This document shows, one piece after another, positions 887-20,443 of a DNA stretch of 22,307 nt (the stretch's first letter is position 1; every line of letters starts with the position of its first letter). Both the position numbers and the translations under genes were made by a program. Below the pieces are notes generated by a model, which was not told where the DNA came from, did no database searches, and saw only the letters and a program-made list of their open reading frames with translations. The stretch lies in IMG/VR virus record IMGVR_UViG_2851949629_000003; one strand, 5' to 3'. This stretch comes from a virus. Lineage: Duplodnaviria > Heunggongvirae > Uroviricota > Caudoviricetes.

Positions 887-1174
887 TTACTGTCTCTGGC
901 AATCTTTATCGCGATAACGCCTGAAGTACCCTCTCGCTTCCTCATCCATACCAAGAGCCGAATGAGTCCGCTTAACTGCCTGTCTTAAATCTCCGAATCT
1001 GTCTGTAGTTGCTGGTGGGCGTGCCGCCTTACGGATACATTCAGAGCGTCTGTTTGCTGCATGTTCACGTTCTTTATCGCCATCTGCCAGCATCATGACT
1101 TCTGCCCATCGTGCGGCAGCTCTCCGGTATAGCCCTTTTGACTCCAGTTCTTCAGCTTTCCTGTCCCTTATCAT
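887..1174 (-). CDS. PerC/Pch-family transcriptional activator-like protein (95 aa)
   Basis: ATG at 1174 with GAGAGG Shine-Dalgarno 5 nt upstream on the minus strand. The motif LESKGLYRRAAARWAEVM matches the PerC-family signature as I recall it. Confidence 0.65.
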   Translation of the reverse strand: MIRDRKAEELESKGLYRRAAARWAEVMMLADGDKEREHAANRRSECIRKAARPPATTDRFGDLRQAVKRTHSALGMDEEARGYFRRYRDKDCQRQ

Positions 1175-2190: not shown

Positions 2191-2218
2191 ATATCCAATG
2201 TGTATGCTGTCGATGCTA

Positions 2219-2597
2219 CGCGCGCGTACTTGTCGCAAAATATCAGACAAAAGCCAGATTCAGAACGTCGTGATAACCACCAGCACAACAGAGAGGTCAT
2301 GTAACGCGATTTATCACACCAGATACATGTGATTGGTGTACCCGCATAAAACATCGTCATAGCGCGTCCTGTGCGCATATACGCCGATAATCAACACATC
2401 ACCACCACTCTGTCTCGTGTAGAAAACAGTTTCATGGTATCCCCCGCCATCGTGTGCGTACTGGTCGGACGCAGTTGCAAAAAATTTTGCAACTGATACC
2501 CCTCGCGCGCGTACTGGTCACGAAATTGGTGTTTTGCTGTGGCAGTGATATCAGAAAAATCTTGCTGTTTCACATAAAGCGGATATGCGCGTACTGT
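2219..2597. repeat. Five dispersed copies of a GCGCGTACTGT-like motif in the gap between the XhlA-like gene and the membrane-protein gene
   Basis: CGCGCGCGTACT at 2219-2230 and 2504-2515; GCGTACTGGTC at 2456-2466 and 2509-2519 (identical 11-mers); GCGCGTACTGT at 2587-2597; GCGCGTCCTGT at 2362-2372. TACGCGCGCGTA (2218-2229) is a perfect palindrome. Confidence 0.4.
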
Positions 2598-2693
2598 AAC
2601 GGCCCCATCAACGGGGATCGGATTTGAAATCCCGACCCAAGCTATGTACCAAATGCCATGTCTTGGATATATGATGATTGCCATTCTAAACAA
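2391..2693 (-). CDS. Doubtful hypothetical ORF (100 aa from a TTG start; 97 aa from ATG at 2684)
   Basis: No convincing Shine-Dalgarno. Its start is only ~26 bp from the divergent 2711 start. The repeated DNA motif falls in three different reading frames of this ORF, which argues it is non-coding. Confidence 0.2.
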   Translation of the reverse strand: MFRMAIIIYPRHGIWYIAWVGISNPIPVDGAVTVRAYPLYVKQQDFSDITATAKHQFRDQYAREGYQLQNFLQLRPTSTHTMAGDTMKLFSTRDRVVVMC

Positions 2694-2710
2694 CGCTAAA
2701 GGGGGTTGGT

Positions 2711-3325
2711 GTGAGCAGAAAAGATACTAAAGAATTGCTAACTATCTGCATGGTGTACTTTTCAATTTATTTTTGTGCATACATGATAGTCCCAGATGAG
2801 TTTGAACATGGCAGTATTATTTATTCCATAACATTCTATTTTTTAGAGCTAACACCAATTTTGGCTATCCTTTTGGCAATACATATTTATTTTTCCTTAA
2901 AAAAAGAATCGACTAATTGGGGGAAGGTATGGAGAGACAGAGGATTTCTAACATCACCTAAAGATGATGCATATGAGAGTGATTTTTCTGACTTTATAAC
3001 AAACTACTACTCCAGCGAACAATTCAAAAATAGACTGTCTGATGTTTGGGAAACAGCAATGTATTCCATAGGGATTATATTATTGATACTTACTGGTATT
3101 GCTCAATATGTTTTTAACATTAACTTATCATTAAATCCTGAAAATTTAATATCGCCATTGATTTTTGGTGAGATATTGATCTTCTCATTCGGAATTTTCT
3201 TGAGTGTTGTTCTCTGCTCATTATGCAAACTACTGACTAACAGGTATCCAGGTGAAGCAAGGAGAGCAAGAAAGGCAAATCCATATTATCTTTTATTTCC
3301 TAATGGAGACAGCAGAGATATCTAA
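2711..3325 (+). CDS. AT-rich integral membrane protein with four predicted transmembrane helices (204 aa); function unknown, candidate exclusion/defence effector
   Basis: GTG at 2711 preceded by AAAGGGGG (2698-2705). Roughly one-third G+C by eye, against ~50% or more in the flanks. Four long hydrophobic segments separated by a charged loop. Convergent with the split gene ending at 3344. Confidence 0.7.
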   Translation: MSRKDTKELLTICMVYFSIYFCAYMIVPDEFEHGSIIYSITFYFLELTPILAILLAIHIYFSLKKESTNWGKVWRDRGFLTSPKDDAYESDFSDFITNYYSSEQFKNRLSDVWETAMYSIGIILLILTGIAQYVFNINLSLNPENLISPLIFGEILIFSFGIFLSVVLCSLCKLLTNRYPGEARRARKANPYYLLFPNGDSRDI

Positions 3326-3343: not shown

Positions 3344-4522
3344 TTATTGAGCTTCTTTTTGTGATGCCTGTGCGACTCTGGTGAGCGATTGTGTGACCGT
3401 ACTGATCGCTCTGTCATATGCTGTGCTACCTTTTGGCGTATTTGCCAAACGTAACAAGGCATTTCGTATAACAGGGCTTTCGTATGCCTTCGCGGCTCCG
3501 CCTACGGCACCAGCAGCAGGAACAACAAACGCAGCCGTTTTTAGCATCCCCGCTAATACTGCTGCGTTTATGATGCCACCACCAACTAACAATCCATAAA
3601 GCTGCTGACCATTTAAGTTTTGAACGTTCGCTTTTGCCGCGTGTCTTGTATCGTTGAGGTATTTAATAACGCCGTCCAGTTCCTTTCCATGTACGCCTTT
3701 AAAGAAAGTTGCTGATTGCTTCCTGTTCCGGTGTAACGCATTAATAAACTTCTCAACACTGATATTTCCAGACGGATCAGTCGCCTTATCTACAGCATTC
3801 TGAACTATGGCTGCTCGTGCGTTTTGCCTACCATTGTCATCCAGAAGCCTGTAAAGCTGAGAACGTTCTGATGGGCTTTGGCTAAAAACGAGTTTTGTTA
3901 CATCCTCAGGCGTGGCCTTGCCGCTGGCTATTGCCTTTTGAACGCGCGTTCTTCCCATCATGTCATTGAATTTAGACCATGAGCGATCAACCCTTGCCAT
4001 ATTAATGGCTTCGTCTGCTCCAAGATTTTTGGCTACGGCTTTTTTCATATCCGCCGTATATGCCTTGTAGATAATATCGCTGGCTTTCTGGAGCGTATCT
4101 TTATCAACAGTGTCAGATGACGCCATAAACCGCTTTCGAAGATCGGTTCTGTTTTCCCTCGCCAGACGCAGGTCATTTGGTCCGCTGGTGATATCGTCTT
4201 TAAATTGCTGCAAGACTTTTACCGCGGCTCTATCCTGAGATTTACCCGGGCGGCTTAACACAGCAATCTGATTGTCGATAGCTTTTACCGTGTTTGAGAG
4301 ATCGACAGGGGTATCCCCCATAGCGTCAATTATGCGGTTATATCGCTTTCCTGCTGCCTCAATGAATTTTTGTTGCCCTTTAGTCGCAGATTCATAAAGC
4401 TGTTTATCAGAAATGCCACCCAGACCATCGCTAAATGTTCTGACTAAATTTTCTCGTGCTTGTTGTTGATTCAGCCGATTCTTACCGGTTCCAAAAAAAG
4501 GAACTCTTTCGCCTAATGTCTG
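3344..4522 (-). pseudogene. 3' portion (392 codons) of a ~701-codon Q/A-rich gene split by IS66 copy 1
   Basis: The track ORF 3344-4321 stays open upstream with no stop to the IS boundary at 4522/4523. It is in frame with 7063-7989 once the IS and one target-duplication copy are removed. Confidence 0.7.
4515..4522. repeat. Left 8-bp target-site duplication AATGTCTG of IS66 copy 1
   Basis: Identical to 7055-7062, immediately outside the element ends. Confidence 0.85.
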
Positions 4523-4552: not shown

Positions 4553-6166
4553 TTATTTATTGGTGAGTACTACGTTCCATGGCAGGAGTTCGTCAACTCG
4601 GTTGGAAGGCCATTCCGGCAGTACGCTCAGGATATGGCGCAGATACGCTTCCGGATCGATACCGTTCAAACGGCAGGTGCCGATCAGCCCGTACAACAGT
4701 GCTCCACGCTCGCCGCCGTGATCGCTGCCAAAGAACATAAAGTTTTTCTTTCCGAGACAGACTGCACGAAGCGCTCTTTCCGCAGCATTATTATCCGCCT
4801 CCGCCAGACCGTCATCACTGTAATAACAGAGGACATCCCACTGATTCAGTACATAGCTGAACGCTTCGCCCAGTCTGGATTTTTTCGACAGCGTACCATT
4901 CTTCTCCACCATCCATTCATGCAGCGACGTCAGTAACACTTTGCTTCGCTGCTGCCTGACCGCCAGGCGTTCAGACACCGGCAACCCGCGTATTTCGTGC
5001 TCAATGGCGTACAGTTCACTGATTCGCTTCAGGGCTTCTTCTGCCGTCGCACTTTTGCTGCTGATGTATACATCGTGGATTTTTCGCCGGGCATGGGCCC
5101 AGCACGCAACTTCTGTCAGTGCACCACCTTCACGTTCTGCACTGAACAACCTGTCGTAACCTGTGAACGCATCCGCCTGCAGGATACCCCGGAAGGGGCG
5201 GAGGTGTTGCTCCGGGTGTTTCCCCTGCCGGTTCGGCGAGTACGCGAACCAGACCGCTGGAGGAGATGACGAACCCACATTGCGATCATCCCGGACATAC
5301 GTCCAGATACGCCCTGTTTTCGCCTTTTTCTGACCCGGTGCCAGTACCTTTACCGGTGTGTCATCAGTGTGAACCTTGCGGGTGTTCATTACATAACGGT
5401 ACAGGGCATCATTCACCGGTGTCATTAACTGGCAGCACGCGTCAACCCAGTTGGAGAGTAAGGCCCGGCTCAGTTCGACACCCTGGCGGGCAAAGATTTC
5501 ACTCTGACGATACAGTGGCAGATGTTCGCAGTATTTTCCCGTTAACACGCGGGCAAGTAATCCGGGGCCCGCGATACCACGCTCTATCGGGCGGGACGGC
5601 GCCGGTGCTTCAACAATACAGTCACATTTTGTACAGGCTTTTTTTACCCGTTCTGTGCGGATCACTTTCAGGGCACTGCTCACCAGTTCCAGCTGTTCAG
5701 CGCTGACTTCCCCCAGATAATCCAGCTCACCGCCACACTCCGGGCAACAGCTTTCTTCTGGCTCCAGGCGGTGTATTTCACGGGGAAGGTGTGCCGGTAA
5801 CGGACGACGATGGCGCGACTGTCGCAACTGGCGGGGAACCTGAGGATCGTCTTCCCGCCCACTGTAACGATCGCTGTCCTGTTCACGTTGTTTCAGCAGA
5901 GCCTCAGCCAGTTCAACTTCACGACGCAGTTTTTCAGAACGGGTACCGAACAGCATCCGGCGCAGTTTTTCTATCTGAGCCCGCAGATGTTCTATTTCCC
6001 GTTCATCTTCTTCGATCTTTTCTTCGGCACGTGTCAGTGCAGAGCGCAGGAAGGCTTCCGTCTCTTCAACCAGACTCAGTTGCTGGTCTTTCTGACGGAG
6101 GGCTTCAGCCTGCTCAGAGAGCAACCTTTCCAGCTCTGCGATGCGAATGAGGTATTTCTGACTCAT
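4553..6166 (-). CDS. tnpC: IS66-family transposase TnpC (537 aa)
   Basis: Long ORF with coiled-coil N-terminus and Cys-rich zinc-finger-like segment (CPECGG...CTKCDC), typical IS66 ORF3 layout. About 90% identical to the second copy. Confidence 0.9.
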   Translation of the reverse strand: MSQKYLIRIAELERLLSEQAEALRQKDQQLSLVEETEAFLRSALTRAEEKIEEDEREIEHLRAQIEKLRRMLFGTRSEKLRREVELAEALLKQREQDSDRYSGREDDPQVPRQLRQSRHRRPLPAHLPREIHRLEPEESCCPECGGELDYLGEVSAEQLELVSSALKVIRTERVKKACTKCDCIVEAPAPSRPIERGIAGPGLLARVLTGKYCEHLPLYRQSEIFARQGVELSRALLSNWVDACCQLMTPVNDALYRYVMNTRKVHTDDTPVKVLAPGQKKAKTGRIWTYVRDDRNVGSSSPPAVWFAYSPNRQGKHPEQHLRPFRGILQADAFTGYDRLFSAEREGGALTEVACWAHARRKIHDVYISSKSATAEEALKRISELYAIEHEIRGLPVSERLAVRQQRSKVLLTSLHEWMVEKNGTLSKKSRLGEAFSYVLNQWDVLCYYSDDGLAEADNNAAERALRAVCLGKKNFMFFGSDHGGERGALLYGLIGTCRLNGIDPEAYLRHILSVLPEWPSNRVDELLPWNVVLTNK

Positions 6167-6196
6167 GACCGTTTTTATAATGCGGTCAGGAGTTTT

Positions 6197-6547
6197 TTAC
6201 AACATTGTCAGTGAGTTACGGCTGGATGTTTTTGGCTGACGCCAGTCCAGCTTATCGAGGAGCATTGCCAGTTGCGAGCGGGTAATGGATACCTTGCCGT
6301 CACGTACCGCAGGCCAGATAAACTGGCCTTCCTCCAGGCGTTTGGTGAACAGGCACAGACCATCAGCATCAGCCCAAAGAATTTTGACGGTGTCACCCCG
6401 TCGGCCACGGAAGATAAACAGGTGACCGGAGAAGGGATTATCATTCAGCACATGTTGTACCTGTTCTCCCAGTCCGTTGAAGGATTTACGCATATCGGTA
6501 ACGCCGGCAACGAGCCAGATACGGGTACCTGATGGGAGTGAGATCAT
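6197..6547 (-). CDS. tnpB: IS66-family TnpB accessory protein (116 aa)
   Basis: Middle ORF of the IS66 triplet. Its start overlaps the tnpA stop (6544-6547). Confidence 0.85.
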   Translation of the reverse strand: MISLPSGTRIWLVAGVTDMRKSFNGLGEQVQHVLNDNPFSGHLFIFRGRRGDTVKILWADADGLCLFTKRLEEGQFIWPAVRDGKVSITRSQLAMLLDKLDWRQPKTSSRNSLTML

Positions 6548-6969
6548 CTTCCCCTCCCGGTCAGTTCACGGATCAACACTGTGAGCAGCTCTGGCGATGG
6601 ATTTTCCAGCGTCATGTTACCGTGACGGAATTCCACCTTGCAGGAACTGGCACTGACTCTGGTCTGAGTGGAAGTGGATAAAGACGGCGCAATGGCCGCC
6701 ACAGGTTCTTTCTGCTCATCCGGCGTTATTTCTACAGGTAATAATTCAACGCCAGTGTCAGAAGAGGTCGTTACCGGAAGACGCCGCGAAACACGCCCTT
6801 CGTTCTGCCAGAGCCTGAGCCATTTGAAAATAACATTATCATTGACGCCATTTTCACGTGCAATCTGTGCAACACAAGCTCCAGGTTGTGATGCCAGTTC
6901 CACCATACGAAGTTTGAATTCATTCGAATAGTTTTTACGAGGTTCTTTTCGCCAGTCCTGTAATTCCAT
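6544..6969 (-). CDS. tnpA: IS66-family TnpA (141 aa, helix-turn-helix)
   Basis: First ORF of the IS66 triplet, with a conserved N-terminal DNA-binding-like segment (FKLRMVELASQPGA...IFKWLRLWQ). Confidence 0.85.
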   Translation of the reverse strand: MELQDWRKEPRKNYSNEFKLRMVELASQPGACVAQIARENGVNDNVIFKWLRLWQNEGRVSRRLPVTTSSDTGVELLPVEITPDEQKEPVAAIAPSLSTSTQTRVSASSCKVEFRHGNMTLENPSPELLTVLIRELTGRGR

Positions 6970-7054
6970 ACTTAGATGTCCGTCTATATCAGATGGGCGT
7001 CTAAGTTACCAATTCTCGTCTGATGGCTACATACGGCGGTCAGTTTACGCTTAC

Positions 7055-7062
7055 AATGTCTG
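7055..7062. repeat. Right 8-bp target-site duplication AATGTCTG of IS66 copy 1
   Basis: Identical to 4515-4522. Confidence 0.85.
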
Positions 7063-7989
7063 AGCCTGACTCTGCATAAAGGTTTTATCTTTCAGCATGT
7101 CACTGGTCATTAACGGCAGATTTCTTTCCGATGCAAAGTCGACAGCAGCCTTTGCTTCAGGCGACATATCACCACGAACAGCCCTCGAAACCGCACTCGC
7201 TGTATTTTCCAGCCCCTTACCAATACCACCAATGCCAGCAGAAATTACCGTTTGTAACGGATCAATATCTTCTCCACCAGCGAGGCTGGTGGCTCCCTGT
7301 AGTGCTAAATCTGTAGCTGCTGATTTCCCTATGGCCCCCAGCACCGTTCCGGCCCTGCCCGCTGGTGTAAACGCCAGCGCATTAGCCAGAAACGATGCCA
7401 CGTCTTGCGGCGATAAACCCGGCTTGTTCAGAGCATAATCACCGGATGGCAGGGAAACGATAGTGTTACCCTTCTCATCCTGCCTTAATTTCGCTCCCAT
7501 GCTCTGAAGAATCTTTTCCTGAGATGCGTCAGAGCCGAAAAGTTGAGACCATCGAGTTTTTAGAGCATCCATGCTGAGTGAGGTTAACTCTGGGGCAAGG
7601 TCGACATTTTGCAGTCTCTCCATCTCTGGAGTCATTCGGCTTTCGCCTGTTATAGCATCGCGCATCGCAGCCCCAAGGCTGGCTCCCTGTTCTGCTGAAC
7701 GCTCAAGCCCCTCTCTTTGCTGAGTAGCTAACTTTGCATACCCTGACGCAAGAGAATTATCAGATGATGTATGTTGAATATTTTGAGTTGCTGATTGGGC
7801 TCGGTCTATTTCATTCGTTGATGGTAGTGGATAGGCAGCATAAAAAGCCTGCTTAGCCTGCTCTACACTTTCTCCGGCTTGCGGGGCAACGACTTCATTG
7901 AAGTATTGCTCCTGAGCCTGCGCTTTTTGTTCTGGTGCTAACGCCTGATACTGTGGAGAAGCGATAACATCTTTCCATGCTTTAGCCAT
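7055..7989 (-). pseudogene. 5' portion (native codons 7063-7989, 309 aa) of the IS-split ~701-codon gene
   Basis: ATG at 7987-7989 overlaps the upstream stop (TAATG). The apparent stop at 7051-7053 lies inside the IS terminus. Frame continues into 4522 when the IS is excised. Confidence 0.7.
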
Positions 7990-11160: not shown

Positions 11161-11286
11161 CACATTGTGTTGGTTCAAAATACCGTGTTGTTGGTTCAGT
11201 GTTGGTTCAATAAAAAGAATAAAATCATTATAAAACAATACTCTTTACAAATTGAACCAACTGAACCAACTGAACCAACACCTTTT
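11161..11286. repeat. Iteron cluster B: three GTTGGTTCA units (11169-11209) and three tandem TGAACCAAC units (11253-11279); inverted copy of cluster A, directly 3' of the primase gene
   Basis: Read directly. 11242-11286 is the exact reverse complement of 1204-1248. Confidence 0.75.
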
Positions 11287-11304: not shown

Positions 11305-14064
11305 TCATTCTTCAGATGAGTTATAATCTCCTGGCTGGTAATTGAGTACATAAACGTTTATTTGTCGTCCCTGAATACGTGGTGATTTTCTTTGGTATCC
11401 ACGACCGCTGTTTGGTGGGGTTAGCATCCCGGCTTTTTTCAACACTTCAGCAAACTGTTTTGCGTTGAAACCACATGCGATCTCCTTTTCAAATGTGGCC
11501 GGGAATGTGTAGAAAATCATTGGGCTTTCGTCATGTTCTCCACGCTGACGGTATCCGGCTAAATCTTTGATGGGCAAATCTGCCGGGCTGTATGGAAATG
11601 GTGCAAAACGGCTAAGCCCATAGGCATTAAGAAATGCCTCCGTTTGTTCAATAATCTGCTGATGTTCTTTGTTACCTGTGCCGAACTCGCGCAACCATGC
11701 GTTATAGCTGTGCTGTATCGCATCACGGCATGTCTGAGCATCCCAGCCTGTTACAACCTCGCCTAACAGCAATGCGGCCTCCAGAATGGCAAATCGCGCG
11801 GCTACACGGTGAACCTGCTCACCATAATCGGATGGGATCAGACTTCTCCATCTGCTTTCGCAGTCACGAACAGTTTTAATTGCCTGTTGCTGGTGGTCTG
11901 CCAGCCATTTAATCCACTCACGCCCGGCTGCGCCGTGGTGATGCTGGTAAGCGTCTTTCAGTGCGTCTGCGTGCTGTTTTCCGTTCTGGTAATCGTGAAA
12001 GCGTACTGCTTTACTCAACGGAATATTCAGCAGTCGCACCAGTTGCCCGGCTTTGGTTTTTCGCCCGGAAGTAGCGATAAATGTTTCTAAATCCATTTCT
12101 CCGGTGCTGATTGCCACTGTACGCCAGCGTTTTAGATCCCGGTTTCCACCATCTTTAGCGCCTTGCAGTTTCCCTACACCGTTAAATAACGCATAGGCAG
12201 ACTGTGAAACGCTGACAGGATCTGCGCCCTGACCAACTTCATCAAGCGGCATTAGTCCGTCATTGTGGGCGGCAGCTTCATTTGCCAGCCCCAGCGCGGT
12301 TCCGTACCACGTCAGCCGCAGTAAATCAGGGTTGCCGTATAAGCTGCTCGCCACGTTTGCCGTGGTGGTCTTACCTGCGCTCGACTGCTCATAGAAATGA
12401 ATGCCGAACCCGTCAGCGCCCACCAGCCCAATCAATGGCGCTGCCAGTGCTGCGCCGATCCCGGTCATCATTGAATAGTTACCAAAGGCCAGACGCGCCA
12501 CGCTATCACGCCAGCTTTTCGCGCTCCCTGAGATAGTATATCCGGCTGCGGCTGAGCTTCTCCCGCTGAACAGCACAGGATTTTCAGGTGTTCCGATGAT
12601 TTCCCCATCAGGCATGATGTACGCTCCGCATTGCCAGCCAGTGGCATGAGCAACACGCCACAATTCACGAGAGCCACTGCGTTGTAGCCAGTCTGCCAGT
12701 ATTGCTCTGAGGCTGCTTTTGGTCGTGACATTTACCCCACCAGCTTTAAGTGTGCGCCATCCTTCACGTTCACCAATATCAGCCAGTGGAATGGCAGCGG
12801 TTGTCGGCGTTTCAGAACCAAACGACAGCCAGCGAAGAATGAGATACTGGTCTTTATCGTCTCTGCCAGTACCGATAACGCTTAACGGAGAACATAACCA
12901 GCTTTCGTTATTGATGATTTCTCCACTCTGGCTGTCAGCTCTCGGAGATACCCAATAAATACCATCCTCGCGGCTTTCTATTCTTGGTTTCAGTGGGTCG
13001 GTATCCATAACCTTAAAATCGCTTCCTTCAATGGTCTGTGGCTCCTGTTTCACGCCATTACCCTGTGGTTGGTACATTGATTTATTGAACGCTTCTGTAG
13101 CGCATTTAATGCCGTGTTTTTGGTGGTAATCATTCCAGTCTGCTTTGTGATCTGTCGGGGGTAATGCCACCCATCCAGAAACAGATAAAGCTGCTTTTTC
13201 TGCTGCTATTCTCCCCGTGTTTTGTCTTCCTTCGCTGTGGTCGTTATCCGCAGCAATGATGATTTGTGCTGAAGGAAATTTATCCCGCAGTACCTGGGCG
13301 ACATATAACAGGTTCCCGGCATCAATCGCCGCCACTGTCAGCGCCTCTGGACGAATTAAATGGGCAGATAATGCCGTTGCCAGCCCTTCTGCGATTAAGA
13401 TGCTCTGTGTTGTTTCTGGTGCGTTTATGGCGTGATATGCCCCTCGCTTTGCTGAACCTGTCAGGAGTCTTTTTTCACCATGTGAGGTAATAGTCTGTGC
13501 TGCTGTTACTGCGCCGGATTTATCCACCAGCGCCAGCAACAGAGATCCATCGGGCAACACGGGGAATGTAAAATCACCTACCCCTTTCGCAACCAGATAA
13601 TCAGATTTGCCGTTTACAGCCTTTCTGCGCATGTCATCAAACTGACGGGAAAACGTATCCCGTCTTTGTTGTTCGTCCTTCTCTGCCCTTTTCAGGCGCT
13701 CCTGTTCGCGTCGCTGGCGCTCGGTTTCCAGTTGTTCCCGTTTCTGGCTGGTGGCTTCTGGTGTTTCCGTTGTCCGGTAATCAATACCCAGAACATCAGC
13801 GGCAAGAAGCGCCGCCTCTGTTGTGTCGCAGTTATTTACGCGTTTAATTAAATCCAGCCCATCACCAGCGCCGCACTGATTACAGATGAAGCTACCGCGC
13901 CCGTTGTCATCGAACCGGAATCGATCTTTACCCCCACATGCAGGGCAGGGAGCATGACGGCGTGGAGAGTCAGGGACATTTATGTTCAGGCAGCCCAGCA
14001 CATGAGGCCAGTTGTTTTCAGACGCACTGATAACCTGACGGATAAGATCAATGTTTCGCATCAC
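11305..14064 (-). CDS. Primase-helicase (P4 alpha-like architecture: zinc ribbon + TOPRIM + P-loop NTPase), 919 aa
   Basis: Zinc ribbon CPACGG...CNQCG near the N-terminus, TOPRIM-like acidic motif IIIAADNDH, P-loop-like SAGKTTT. GTG at 14064 or ATG at 14061. Iterons lie immediately downstream. Confidence 0.85.
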   Translation of the reverse strand: MMRNIDLIRQVISASENNWPHVLGCLNINVPDSPRRHAPCPACGGKDRFRFDDNGRGSFICNQCGAGDGLDLIKRVNNCDTTEAALLAADVLGIDYRTTETPEATSQKREQLETERQRREQERLKRAEKDEQQRRDTFSRQFDDMRRKAVNGKSDYLVAKGVGDFTFPVLPDGSLLLALVDKSGAVTAAQTITSHGEKRLLTGSAKRGAYHAINAPETTQSILIAEGLATALSAHLIRPEALTVAAIDAGNLLYVAQVLRDKFPSAQIIIAADNDHSEGRQNTGRIAAEKAALSVSGWVALPPTDHKADWNDYHQKHGIKCATEAFNKSMYQPQGNGVKQEPQTIEGSDFKVMDTDPLKPRIESREDGIYWVSPRADSQSGEIINNESWLCSPLSVIGTGRDDKDQYLILRWLSFGSETPTTAAIPLADIGEREGWRTLKAGGVNVTTKSSLRAILADWLQRSGSRELWRVAHATGWQCGAYIMPDGEIIGTPENPVLFSGRSSAAAGYTISGSAKSWRDSVARLAFGNYSMMTGIGAALAAPLIGLVGADGFGIHFYEQSSAGKTTTANVASSLYGNPDLLRLTWYGTALGLANEAAAHNDGLMPLDEVGQGADPVSVSQSAYALFNGVGKLQGAKDGGNRDLKRWRTVAISTGEMDLETFIATSGRKTKAGQLVRLLNIPLSKAVRFHDYQNGKQHADALKDAYQHHHGAAGREWIKWLADHQQQAIKTVRDCESRWRSLIPSDYGEQVHRVAARFAILEAALLLGEVVTGWDAQTCRDAIQHSYNAWLREFGTGNKEHQQIIEQTEAFLNAYGLSRFAPFPYSPADLPIKDLAGYRQRGEHDESPMIFYTFPATFEKEIACGFNAKQFAEVLKKAGMLTPPNSGRGYQRKSPRIQGRQINVYVLNYQPGDYNSSEE

Positions 14065-16031: not shown

Positions 16032-17091
16032 TGGTTGCCCCCGTTTTGCATGGCATTTGTCCACCTTCCAGCAGGAAATGAACGTCACGAACGGCGAGAT
16101 CCAATATCGCGAGTAACGCCTTCAGTTTTTCGTCTCGTGAGGGAGAGTTGCTCACCAGAATGTCATTAATCACTTCTGTCAGTGTGATGATCTGGCTTGT
16201 GCGTTCGAGGGGATCCATATGCACATCGTAGGTTTTAATCATGTGCCACCTCCATGCGGATACGACCAGCAAAAAAGCAGACGTGATCGCGCACCAGAGA
16301 ACGGCGAGCATCGCGTTCAGACTCGGCAGCAATATGATGAATTTTGGCGGTAATTGTCGGGCAATCGCGGCGAACTGCGGCGATAATCCAGATAAATTGC
16401 GGTTTTTGGGTAGGGGTAGTAGCCAGCATGTGGCAGCCTCCTTCAGATAGCAGGTTACGCTACCACCGGAAACGCCAATTTCGCTGGTGGTAGCCCAGAC
16501 AGGGTTGGCGTAACCGGCTCTGAAGGATACCGGCGCTTCCGAAGAAGCCCCCGCCTGAGCCACCATTGATTGACAAAGGCGCTGGATTATACACCAACGC
16601 CCAAAAAATGGGTGAGTCAGACCTACGACATAAAAAAAGACGCTCGGCGCGTCATATGTCGCCTTCAGAATTTTCAGGACGCCAATCCCGGCACCCGTTT
16701 TATGAGGTGCCTTATAACCATAAACCGTGTTGCCGCATAACGGCAAGCTCTTTTTTATGGACTCCGAAAACTCGCTATTGGAAGCACCAGATGCACAGTA
16801 CATCGCGCTCATTTCGTTAACGTCACGCGCGTGGACGAATGTTTTTGTGGAGTCACTACACGAGCGGAAGACATCATCTACGACCAGAAATTCTCTGGCG
16901 CAGCCGCTGACCTTCTCAATGCTAATATCATCGCCCGAGATTTCTGGTATGGTTAAGGCATCCGTTCCGACCACCAGCAAATGATAAACTTTGCTTGTAT
17001 CTGCTGTATTAATGCCTGACTTTGCTGTCATATTGCTGTATTTTGGCGACATACCAGCCAGTGAAAATATCTTCTTCTGGGCGGTTAGCAT
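16024..17091 (-). CDS. Hypothetical protein (355 aa), unrecognised; C-terminal half contains hydrophobic stretches
   Basis: ATG at 17091 with GGAGG Shine-Dalgarno. Coupled to both neighbours. No recognised motif. Confidence 0.55.
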
Positions 17092-17267
17092 TTGTTAACC
17101 TCCGCGAACTCCTTCATGAAACGTGCCAGCGGTTGTACGCATGGCGATTGATACCCGTCGCGATAAAACGTCACTCGGTTGTGAGACACGCTTTCGACAG
17201 TAACGAGTGCTCCGTGGGCATCTTTGTAGCGTTTTTGAGGTTGTGGTGTTCCTGTCGGCTTAAACAT
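17085..17267 (-). CDS. Hypothetical small protein (60 aa from MFKPTGT...; track ORF extends to 17354)
   Basis: ATG at 17265-17267 with GGAGG Shine-Dalgarno. Overlaps the upstream stop by 8 nt. Confidence 0.5.
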   Translation of the reverse strand: MFKPTGTPQPQKRYKDAHGALVTVESVSHNRVTFYRDGYQSPCVQPLARFMKEFAEVNKC

Positions 17268-18014: not shown

Positions 18015-19628
18015 TTATTTATTAGTGAGTACTACGTTCCATGGCAGGAGTTCGTCAACTCGGTTGGAAGGCCATTCCGGCAGTACGCTCAGGATATGGC
18101 GCAGATACGCTTCCGGATCGATACCATTCAACCGGCAGGTGCCGATCAGCCCGTACAACAGTGCACCACGCTCGCCGCCGTGATCGCTACCGAAGAACAC
18201 GTAATTTTTCTTTCCGAGACAGACTGCACGAAGCGCTCTTTCCGCTGTGTTATTGTCCGCCTCCGCCAGACCGTCATCACAGAAGTTGCACAACGCAACC
18301 CAGTGCTTCCTGATATACCGGAACGCATCTCTCAGACGGCATTTTTTCGATAACGTGTGTTCTTTCTCCTGCATCAGCTTATACAGGGAAGTCAGTAGCG
18401 GTTTACTCTGCATTTGCCTGACCGCCAGGCGTTCAGACACCGGCAACCCGCGTATTTCGTGCTCAATGGCGTACAGTTCGCCGATTAGTTTCAGTGCTTC
18501 TTCCGCCGTCGCGCTTTTGGTACTGATATATACATCGTGGATTTTGCGCCGCGCATGAGCCCAGCATCCTGCTTCCGTCAACGCGCCGCCTTCACGTTCG
18601 GCACTGAACAGCCGATCGTAACCTGCGAACGCATCTGCCTGCAGGATACCCCGGAAGGGACGAAGGTGTTGCTCCGGATGTTTACCCTGATGGTCCGGTG
18701 AGTAGGCGAACCAGACCGCCGGAGGTTCTGGCGAACCGGCATTTCGGTCATCCCGGACATACGTCCAGATATATCCTGTTTTCGCCTTCTTCCTGCCCGG
18801 TGCCAGTACTTTTACTGGTGTGTCATCAGTGTGAACCTTGCGGGTGTTCATCACATAACTGTACAGGGCATCATTCAGCGGAGTCATTAACTGGCAGCAC
18901 GCATCAACCCAGTTGGAGAGTAAGGCACGGCTCAGTTCGACACCCTGGCGGGCAAAGATTTCACTCTGACGATACAGTGGCAGGTGTTCGCAGTATTTTC
19001 CCGTTAACACGCGGGCAAGTAACCCCGGGCCCGCGATACCACGCTCTATCGGACGGGATGGTGCCGGTGCTTCAACGATGCAGTCACATTTTGTACAGGC
19101 TTTTTTTACCCGTTCTGTGCGGATCACTTTCAGGGCGCTGCTCACCAGCTCCAGTTGTTCTGCGCTGACTTCCCCCAGATAATCCAGCTCACCGCCACAC
19201 TCCGGGCAACAGCTTTCTTCAGGCTCCAGGCGGTATATTTCACGGGGGAGATGTGCCGGTAACGGACGACGATGGCGCGACTGTCGCAACTGGCGGGGAA
19301 CCAGCGGGTCATCCTCACGCCCACTGTAACGATCGCTTTCCTGCTCGCGTTGTTTCAGCAGGACTTCAGCCTGTTCAACCTCACTACGCAGTTTTTCAGA
19401 ACGGGTTCCGAACAGCATCCGGCGCAGTTTTTCTATCTGAGCCCGCAGATGCTCTATTTCTCGCTCATCTTCTTCGATCTTTTCTTCGGCACGTGCCAGT
19501 GCAGAGCGCAGGAAGGCCTCCGTCTCTTCAACCAGACTCAGTTGCTGGTCTTTCTGACGGAGGGCTTCAGCCTGCTCAGAGAGCAGCCTTTCCAGCTCAG
19601 CGATGCGAATGAGGTATTTCTGACCCAT
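18015..19628 (-). CDS. tnpC: IS66-family transposase TnpC (537 aa), copy 2
   Basis: Collinear with the copy-1 TnpC, about 90% identical by eye. Confidence 0.9.
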   Translation of the reverse strand: MGQKYLIRIAELERLLSEQAEALRQKDQQLSLVEETEAFLRSALARAEEKIEEDEREIEHLRAQIEKLRRMLFGTRSEKLRSEVEQAEVLLKQREQESDRYSGREDDPLVPRQLRQSRHRRPLPAHLPREIYRLEPEESCCPECGGELDYLGEVSAEQLELVSSALKVIRTERVKKACTKCDCIVEAPAPSRPIERGIAGPGLLARVLTGKYCEHLPLYRQSEIFARQGVELSRALLSNWVDACCQLMTPLNDALYSYVMNTRKVHTDDTPVKVLAPGRKKAKTGYIWTYVRDDRNAGSPEPPAVWFAYSPDHQGKHPEQHLRPFRGILQADAFAGYDRLFSAEREGGALTEAGCWAHARRKIHDVYISTKSATAEEALKLIGELYAIEHEIRGLPVSERLAVRQMQSKPLLTSLYKLMQEKEHTLSKKCRLRDAFRYIRKHWVALCNFCDDGLAEADNNTAERALRAVCLGKKNYVFFGSDHGGERGALLYGLIGTCRLNGIDPEAYLRHILSVLPEWPSNRVDELLPWNVVLTNK

Positions 19629-19658
19629 GGCCGTTTTTATAATCCGGCCCGGCGTTTT

Positions 19659-20009
19659 TTACAACATTGTCAGTGCGTTAAGGCGGGATGTTTTTGGCTG
19701 ACGCCAGTCCAGCTTATCGAGGAGCATTGCCAGTTGCGAGCGGGTAATGGATATCTTACCGTCATGCACCGCAGGCCAGATAAACTGACCTTCCTCAAGG
19801 CGTTTGGTGAACAGGCACAGACCATCAGCATCAGCCCACAGGATTTTAATCGTGTCTCCCCGTCGGCCACGGAAGATAAACAGGTGACCGGAGAAGGGGT
19901 TATCATCCAGCACATGCTGTATCTGCTCCCCCAGACCGTTGAAGGATTTACGCATATCAGTAACGCCGGCAACGAGCCAGATACGGGTACCTGATGGGAG
20001 TGAAATCAT
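19659..20009 (-). CDS. tnpB: IS66-family TnpB (116 aa), copy 2
   Basis: Collinear with the copy-1 TnpB. Confidence 0.85.
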   Translation of the reverse strand: MISLPSGTRIWLVAGVTDMRKSFNGLGEQIQHVLDDNPFSGHLFIFRGRRGDTIKILWADADGLCLFTKRLEEGQFIWPAVHDGKISITRSQLAMLLDKLDWRQPKTSRLNALTML

Positions 20010-20443
20010 CGTCCCCTCCCGGTCAGCTCACGGATCAACACCGTGAGCAGCTCTGGTGAAGGATTTTCCAGCATCATTTTACCGTAATGGAATTCCACAT
20101 GGCAGGAAGCTGCACAAGCAACTGATAATGCCTCCGGAGCAGGAGCATCTGTAGCACAGCGCGGGGTGTCGATAAGTTCCACTGGAACCAGAGTCGGAGA
20201 GGCCGGAAAAGATTGTGATACTGTAGGGCCTACAATAGTTGGAGGCATTCTACGAGAAATACGTCCTTCTCTTTGCCAGAGGCGTAGCCATTTAAAAATC
20301 AGGTTGTTATCAACGCCATGTTCCCGGGCCAGTTGTGCAACATTGGCATTTGGTTTCGAAGCCAGTTCAACCATATGAAGTTTAAATTCATTAGAAAATA
20401 TCCGGCGGGTTCCGGAGCGCCAGTCTGTAGGTTTATCCATCAA
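20006..20443 (-). CDS. tnpA: IS66-family TnpA (145 aa), copy 2
   Basis: Conserved N-terminal segment (FKLHMVELASKP...IFKWLRLWQ); middle region diverged from copy 1. Confidence 0.85.
   Translation of the reverse strand: MMDKPTDWRSGTRRIFSNEFKLHMVELASKPNANVAQLAREHGVDNNLIFKWLRLWQREGRISRRMPPTIVGPTVSQSFPASPTLVPVELIDTPRCATDAPAPEALSVACAASCHVEFHYGKMMLENPSPELLTVLIRELTGRGR

Follow-up and report, generated by a model that had tools for sequence, protein, structure and literature searches.

A stretch of 22,307 nucleotides (nt) recorded in IMG/VR as the Caudoviricetes virus IMGVR_UViG_2851949629_000003 (the whole of which was analysed and is referred to hereafter as the window) contains, between an XhlA-like gene and a membrane-protein gene, a gap of about 500 bp at positions 2191-2710 in which one short motif recurs, and which raises the question of what a repeat cluster in apparently gene-free DNA is for. 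The initial annotation regarded this gap as probably non-coding and its motif copies as either an array of regulator-binding sites or a structured RNA. The analysis reported here shows a repeat family that is evidently related to a short segment, encoding FRD(K/Q)YA, of the Sf6-type small-terminase gene (terS), and that recurs at several loci of a chromosomal island of Escherichia coli. The conserved block holding the copies is tentatively considered to be a packaging-recognition array derived from a terminase gene and forming part of the non-coding backbone of an island of the EcCIMP1 type, a reading which is possible and falls somewhat short of probable.

The repeated motif and its resemblance to a small-terminase gene

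The motif, GCGCGTACTG with at most one mismatch, does occur five times on the plus strand within 2222-2596. Its cores are alternating purine-pyrimidine tracts with spacings of 140, 92, 53 and 80 nt, and a longer unit of 23 nt is common to copies 1 and 4. The positions first assigned to copies 1, 3 and 4 were shifted by 2-3 nt; the two 11-mers described as identical are so over the 10-mers at 2507 and 2587 and differ at the eleventh base (G versus T), and the perfect 12-bp palindrome that had been described lies at 2217-2228. The copies and the units around them are:

2222-2231, as read on the plus strand: core 1, within repeat unit 1
2214-2241, minus strand: repeat unit 1, reading TTTTGCGACAAGTACGCG from 2240 to 2223 and including the palindrome TACGCGCGCGTA
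2362-2371, minus strand: core 2, present as the core only, GCGCGTCCTG on the plus strand
2454-2463, minus strand: core 3, GTGCGTACTG on the plus strand, which is also the left direct repeat of a 53-nt segment
2501-2537, minus strand: repeat unit 4, with its core at 2507-2516 and reading TTTCGTGACCAGTACGCG from 2525 to 2508; the wider stretch encodes AKHQFRDQYAR
2587-2596, minus strand: core 5, present as the core only, GCGCGTACTG on the plus strand, overlapping a weak -10-like hexamer, TACTGT

The cluster stood up to a shuffled-sequence test in which the largest same-strand family of 10-mers per 520-nt stretch was taken as the statistic: none of 300 dinucleotide-preserving shuffles gave more than three copies, against five in 2191-2710, and no other 520-nt stretch of the window exceeded three except the overlapping 2341-2860. 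A decayed tandem duplication was considered and rejected, as Tandem Repeats Finder returned nothing, the segments between the motifs are unrelated and the resemblance of the 53-nt segment to its neighbour is marginal (p ~0.03).

The stretch is recognisable as an E. coli chromosomal island of the phage-inducible EcCIMP1 type. EcCIMP1 itself (locus L153; NZ_CP139039, about 3,566,000-3,586,000, with its block at 3,569,098-3,569,529), which can be aligned with the window across most of the island length and has a similar gene layout, is a phage-inducible chromosomal island of E. coli MP1. The P22-like phage Kapi1 mobilises it, and genes for a terminase or for packaging could not be recognised in it (PMC11773190). 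The small terminase (TerS) of Kapi1 belongs to the Sf6_terminase family (PF20901, E=7.8e-45) and contains RWLAKHEDFRDKYAKATE. Positions 18875-18892 of the phage genome, within codons 56-63 of terS, read TTTCGCGACAAGTACGCG (peptide FRDKYA), and this 18-mer is matched at 17/18 positions by the minus strand of unit 1 (2240 to 2223) and at 16/18 by that of unit 4 (2525 to 2508). Matches of at least 15/18 occur only once in the 39-kb Kapi1 genome, in terS, and once in total in 30 shuffled genomes; a direct similarity search listed the 17/18 match at E=0.25. The near-identity to the helper terS lies in DNA that is otherwise unalignable.

At the level of the encoded peptide, the minus strand carries the signature (E/D)FRD(K/Q)YA(K/R)A as AKHQFRDQYAR at unit 4 and as FCDKYAR at unit 1. 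When a degenerate 22-mer of the unit was run over IMG/VR, it matched the islands and about 20 unrelated viral contigs, and in eleven of the unrelated contigs examined the match fell within Sf6-type TerS genes, at the peptide EFR(D/E)QYARARE. A peptide-level pattern recovered at least 120 more stretches, with TerS-like RW residues just upstream in 94 of the 109 matches examined; more than 100 viral contigs have the unit 4 peptide as the signature of their Sf6-type TerS. Within the gene family, 80 Sf6-type terS loci all carry GACAAGTACGCG unchanged, and synonymous variation at codons 61-68 is among the lowest. A BLASTP comparison of Kapi1 TerS with the intact form of an open reading frame (ORF) on the minus strand of the gap aligned AKHQ-FRDQYAH with AKHEDFRDKYAK (8/12 identical, E=0.012). 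The PF20901 profile gave no hit to the intact ORF versions at E<=1, and a home-made TerS hidden Markov model, built from sequences that had themselves been chosen by the motif, matched positions 45-77 only, with scores of at most 5.8.

Related units recur elsewhere in the accessory arm of the islands. Copy B is a paralogous unit 3' of the PerC-family gene in 253 genomes and is present in EcCIMP1 together with the block; it matches TTTCGCGACAAGTACGCG at 17/18 positions and adds a 43-nt gapped alignment through the RWLA codons. A further unit, copy C/D, lies near the island end, with copy C matching at 14/18. The five cores and the copies B and C/D of other islands all lie on one strand relative to the island backbone. 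Copy C (L005, ~800-950; L002, ~1470-1555) encodes RYWVQQFHEQYARA and, in another frame, RQWLLTKAPEK, a peptide similar to RKW..K..PKKYG of TerS; copy C may be a larger remnant of a terS pseudogene. The 22-bp pac sequence of P22 was also looked for and is absent from the window, from L027 and from EcCIMP1.

The conserved unit to which the cluster belongs differs slightly from the gap as first delimited:

2210-2713, no strand: conserved backbone block of 504 bp, with the same homology edges in more than 20 loci

The block was found in 544 of 5426 complete E. coli genomes (~10%), at 577 places and mostly at 95-99% identity, as well as in some Salmonella and in EcCIMP1; searches of the GTDB species representatives did not find it, and a collection of 50,697 phage records gave no match to it by blastn or tblastn. 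The suggestion that conservation acts at the level of DNA or RNA receives weak support, for DNA, from the finding that the block diverges about half as fast as the four-fold sites of the neighbouring gene (2.25%, and 1.7% in its right part, against 4.2%), and its divergence has no codon periodicity. Conservation within the block is highest in the right 190 nt.

A candidate packaging-recognition site or an inert relic

In P22-like phages the pac site is contained in terS (PMC8022706), and the TerS of Sf6 recognises a specific pac site (PMC7672466). Since the islands, in addition, lack a terminase of their own, the array is the best candidate for a packaging-recognition site. It would be the cis-acting site, or cluster of sites, by which the small terminase of the helper recognises island DNA, and headful packaging would start at the array and run to decreasing coordinates, that is, towards the PerC-family gene and the island end. 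The islands might then be packaged through a multi-copy mimic of the helper pac site that is made up of Sf6-type terS fragments, namely the five cores and the copies near PerC, a more specific proposal to which we give slightly less credence. That block and copy B are both carried by EcCIMP1, an island mobilised by Kapi1 and without an identified terminase, would fit the role of a pac site, and the single orientation of the asymmetric units would fit a pac site that sets the direction of packaging. The slower divergence of the block lends mild support to a function. Leavitt et al. 2013 reportedly placed the Sf6 pac within the region of the gene specifying the DNA-binding domain, which would be near the segment matched here.

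Comparison with known systems places the candidate close to the headful pac sites of the P22-like phages (P22 gene 3; Sf6 gene 1), which are embedded in the small-terminase gene: the island units correspond to a segment of Sf6-type terS, they are asymmetric and in one orientation, and the known helper, Kapi1, has an Sf6-type TerS. They differ in that the island candidate lies in non-coding satellite DNA without terS and in several copies instead of one. Staphylococcus aureus pathogenicity islands (SaPIs) have pac sites and a SaPI-encoded TerS, while EcCICFT073 has a cos site and Rpp, and in these systems a protein redirects specificity. As in them, a satellite must offer a cis signal that the packaging machinery accepts; unlike them, the EcCIMP1-type islands have no recognised redirecting protein (PMC11773190) and would therefore need a mimic of the helper's own site. 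The pac region of SPP1 type, with its multiple small-terminase contacts, likewise has a counterpart in the several putative elements spread over a few hundred bp of the island, although there is no sequence relationship and the TerS family is a different one. Such spread-out elements would suit a ring of helix-turn-helix (HTH) motifs (PMC9611059).

The 2025 description of EcCIMP1 left unexplained the packaging of this common island family by its P22-like helper, and the array offers a concrete candidate for the cis signal. If the proposal is right, it would explain how these islands hijack P22-like phages, it might let the satellites out-compete a helper with a single site, and it would give a pointer to the recognition sequence of the Sf6-type small terminases.

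Several observations weigh against a packaging role. Only units 1 and 4 of the block, with copies B and C elsewhere, are clearly terS-like; cores 2, 3 and 5 match TTTCGCGACAAGTACGCG at 11/18, 11/18 and 9/18 positions, sharing only 8-10 nt. The cores are no better conserved than their surroundings, with variable columns at 7 of 50 positions against 43 of 454 in the rest of the block, and variants exist in which most of the array is deleted, such as L029. The units carry YAR (CGC) where Kapi1 has YAK, and they were therefore not copied from Kapi1 itself and point to another terS lineage; no phage matching more closely was found in the 50,697-record collection. Finally, a decayed terS pseudogene would likewise keep its most conserved motif longest.

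This last point makes an inert relic a serious rival, since a decaying terS pseudogene loses its most conserved motif last. The block would in that case be the debris of one or more decayed small-terminase-like genes together with a slippage duplication, and its repeats would be devoid of present function. Its persistence would be due solely to the youth of the island family and to its use as a homology arm when cargo is exchanged. We consider this possible, if rather doubtful. It accounts for the broken frame and neutral codon statistics of the minus-strand ORF, for cores that are no more conserved than their flanks, and for the tolerance of deletions between repeats (the 53-nt indel and one of 285 nt in L029). 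In the intact ORF, moreover, FRDQYA stands at residue 54, a distance from the N-terminus similar to that in TerS (residue 58), copy C/D holds, in our own reading, further terS-like pieces in another frame, and the distribution is narrow, being confined to E. coli and Salmonella with none in the GTDB species representatives. Remnants of genes in mobile-element hotspots offer a general parallel, in that the block also has a broken orphan ORF, deletions between direct repeats and variable neighbours. The difference is that the short island piece is found repeatedly, at several loci and always in one orientation, and that it matches the helper terS. Against a relic, at least four separate loci keep the same 18-45-nt piece of a gene of ~430 nt with nothing else recognisable, all in one orientation; the near-identity to the helper is at the level of DNA and stands amid sequence that cannot otherwise be aligned, and the neutral proxy changes about twice as fast as the block.

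Operators, recombination, coding and RNA

The proposal of regulator-binding sites may be put in the form that the five motifs bind a regulator of the island, the helper or the host that controls the adjacent cargo gene. This explanation is retained here as an unlikely one, no positive evidence having been obtained for it and the proposed binder, the protein encoded at 1434-1889, being absent from several of the block-bearing islands sampled, including EcCIMP1. The direct repeats do lie upstream of a conserved Shine-Dalgarno sequence and GTG start, the right 190 nt are kept even in L029, and the best promoter-like site, TTCACA-17-TACTGT at 2569-2597, has its -10 hexamer inside copy 5. The score of that site nevertheless equals the background mean in a weight-matrix scan, and a consensus scan finds no promoter. 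Helical phasing is not apparent from the spacings, the related units found 3' of the PerC gene and close to the island end are not at promoters, and an operator leaves the terS match unexplained. A likelier operator for the 151-amino-acid (aa) protein encoded to the left of the block is found at 1385-1415, directly upstream of its gene, where three decamers containing ACAGT or ACTGT occur (TATAACAGTG, TTATACAGTG and GTATACTGTA).

Other classes of DNA site can be dismissed briefly. A LexA box (half-sites in the wrong order), a sigma-54 promoter (no -12 GC) and a XerCD/dif-like site (no XerD arm) were rejected by hand inspection, and integrase arm-type sites were rejected because the motif is absent at the integrase end (in the window and in L023) and at the left end of the island. 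Replication iterons were rejected as there is no cluster of GCGCGTACTG near the primase gene. A different 9-mer, GTTGGTTCA, forms two clusters of six exact copies, one immediately 3' of the primase gene (11169-11279) and one between PerC and the gene of the 151-aa protein (1211-1331), each set comprising three direct and three inverted copies; at up to one mismatch the window holds 20 occurrences against 5.5 expected. These clusters look like the ori and crr of P4, that is, an origin and a second cis replication region, and would account for the iterons of the island.

A role of the units as recombination linkers, by which short conserved sequences at module borders channel the exchange of cargo cassettes between islands, is judged improbable. 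It draws on the left edge of the block, which lies about 5 nt from unit 1, on two islands that diverge right after copy C, and on the deletions between units 3 and 4 and between units 1 and 4, the latter being the 285-nt deletion of L029 that spares the right 190 nt. A 14.5-kb deletion has one of its ends directly beside core 5, the cores alternate purines and pyrimidines, and a Chi site (GCTGGTGG, minus strand) lies in the block between units 1 and 2, at 2277-2284. Since any direct repeat yields deletions, the junctions need no special function; neither the right borders (2713, 2638 and 2627) nor the L030 truncation coincides with a unit, and the association was spotted after the fact.

The minus strand of the block bears, at 2391-2693, the ORF of 100 aa that the initial annotation had noted as lacking a ribosome-binding site, and no convincing one was found for it. 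In the window, as in most copies, the longer frame is split in two by the 53-nt segment:

2391-2693, minus strand: N-terminal half of the orphan ORF, running thereafter out of frame into a stop; synonymous to non-synonymous changes 3:10
2317-2466, minus strand: C-terminal half of the orphan ORF in another frame (DQYAHDGGGYHETVFY...HMYLV), with its stop at 2314-2316; synonymous to non-synonymous changes 4:14
2454-2506, no strand: 53-nt segment lying between direct repeats of 13 nt, namely cores 3 and 4, and missing in ~6% of copies (alignment A1)
2472-2495: perfect 11-bp inverted repeat, CAGTTGCAAAA/TTTTGCAACTG, centred on 2483-2484

The ORF is not a functional gene here, and the 'hypothetical protein' annotated from it is not a gene. 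The description of the gap as probably non-coding is thus borne out by the broken frame, the lack of a synonymous excess and the absence of homologues beyond the locus and of family matches. The motif copies, as had been pointed out, occupy three codon phases of the ORF (hand check). Its substitution counts are no better than those of the other five frames, while the same test gave 12:4, 9:8 and 80:39 in flanking genes and a weaker 7:10 in PerC. A search of 5.8 billion protein clusters returned near-identical fragments only, an exhaustive HMMER search of 1.84 billion representative proteins gave 15 hits, all of them near-identical or short fragments of the ORF, and no match was found in Pfam, NCBIfam, PHROG, PDB or the phage records. 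The AlphaFold model of the ORF protein has a predicted local distance difference test score (pLDDT) of 37.

That a real small minus-strand gene, encoding a protein of 105-126 aa, perhaps toxin-like or TerS-like, has been inactivated in the window is therefore very improbable. Some genomes carry a Prokaryotic Genome Annotation Pipeline (PGAP) annotation of it, and a minority of copies, 5 of 21 unique ones, are intact through three length solutions: 105 aa without the segment, 123-126 aa with an insert of 54 nt and 122 aa with one of 51 nt. This share of about a quarter is, by our rough estimate, at or below what random indels would give, and the neutral substitution counts, the lack of homologues and of family or fold hits and the low pLDDT all speak against a gene. 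A ParE/RelE-like toxin, the first impression given by the C-terminus of the ORF, found no support in Pfam, NCBIfam or PDB or in the model. A DUF4222 remnant was likewise rejected, as the 94-aa protein P0035, which databases label as DUF4222, is a chimera. It arose through the 14.5-kb deletion mentioned above, which fused the genuine DUF4222 gene, at 17085-17266, with position 2585 of the block by way of TATC microhomology, and is encoded at 4001-4285 of L023, a metagenome contig representing a deletion derivative of the island (joining window positions 2585 and 17150).

The other suggestion made at the outset, a structured RNA, was not upheld, and transcription of the block into such an RNA, or into a small RNA, is scarcely credible: although the conserved non-coding stretch adjoins a gene and contains the perfect hairpin at 2472-2495, fold z-scores are -0.58, +1.08 and -0.01, Rfam gave no match within the block with the threshold relaxed to E<=1, and the hairpin sits in the fastest-evolving, dispensable part of the block. 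Compensatory pairs were not observed among the copies, whose identity is 93% or more outside indels, and the GTDB species representatives supplied no more divergent homologues for a covariation analysis. The 53-nt segment diverges by 4.4%, which is the neutral rate. The centre of the inverted repeat is AA or TT depending on the copy (A1 columns 306-307) with the arms unchanged, an alternation that template switching could have produced by inverting the hairpin centre. Of the 544 genomes with the block, 517 have the part that bears the hairpin, at 542 places against 577 for the block, and the idea of a mobile mini-element was discarded, as these 43 nt gave no sign of copies beyond the block.

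The cargo slot and the rest of the island

The genes flanking the block are exchangeable. The left slot holds an XhlA-like module, an Abi gene or a small HTH gene, depending on the island, and the right slot holds differing small membrane or secreted proteins in other islands. Homology stops exactly at the GTG of 2711-2713, with the cargo divergent from the following base, and the block therefore supplies a common Shine-Dalgarno sequence and start codon to exchangeable cargo. Its right end is the ribosome-binding site and GTG for swappable cargo of the superinfection-exclusion type. Even if the array is inert, the block would still be the fixed arm of a cargo slot for superinfection-exclusion-like proteins, with a common ribosome-binding site and start codon. 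The remaining features of the window are:

887-1174, minus strand: PerC-family gene
left of the block, plus strand: genes of the 151-aa protein and of an XhlA-like protein of 73 aa
2698-2713, plus strand: Shine-Dalgarno-like AAAGGGGG and GTG start, common to different right-hand cargo genes
2711-3325, plus strand: membrane protein of 204 aa, the right-hand cargo, weakly matching phrog_7745 (superinfection exclusion, SieA-like; E=3.5e-4)
minus strand: P22-type ejection-protein genes, interrupted by an IS66 element
11305-14064: TOPRIM/DUF927 primase
also in the window: an antA-DUF4222 pair, a second IS66 element and a P4-type integrase

In Kapi1, small secreted proteins, an XhlA-domain gene and Arc-family regulators follow the gp16 homologue, an arrangement comparable to that of the island; on this layout, the 151-aa, XhlA-like and cargo genes of the island are likely to resemble the mnt-sieA region of P22. 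The two insertions of the IS66 family lie at 4553-6969 and 18015-20443, and the first breaks a gp16-like injection-protein gene into fragments at 3344-4321 and 7051-7989. Because this gene is split, the copy of the island in the window is probably defective.

A Kapi1-like Sf6-type terS and the island block occur together on one contig of 25 kb, IMGVR_UViG_3300045988_004969 (L116; L010/L060), which may represent a helper beside an island or a mis-assembly. The window also contains a C4 antisense RNA (16483-16570, minus strand, 79.9 bits) and an isrK RNA (16633-16710, minus strand, 67.8 bits), both adjoining an antirepressor module, with which they make up a P1/P7-type immunity region within the island.

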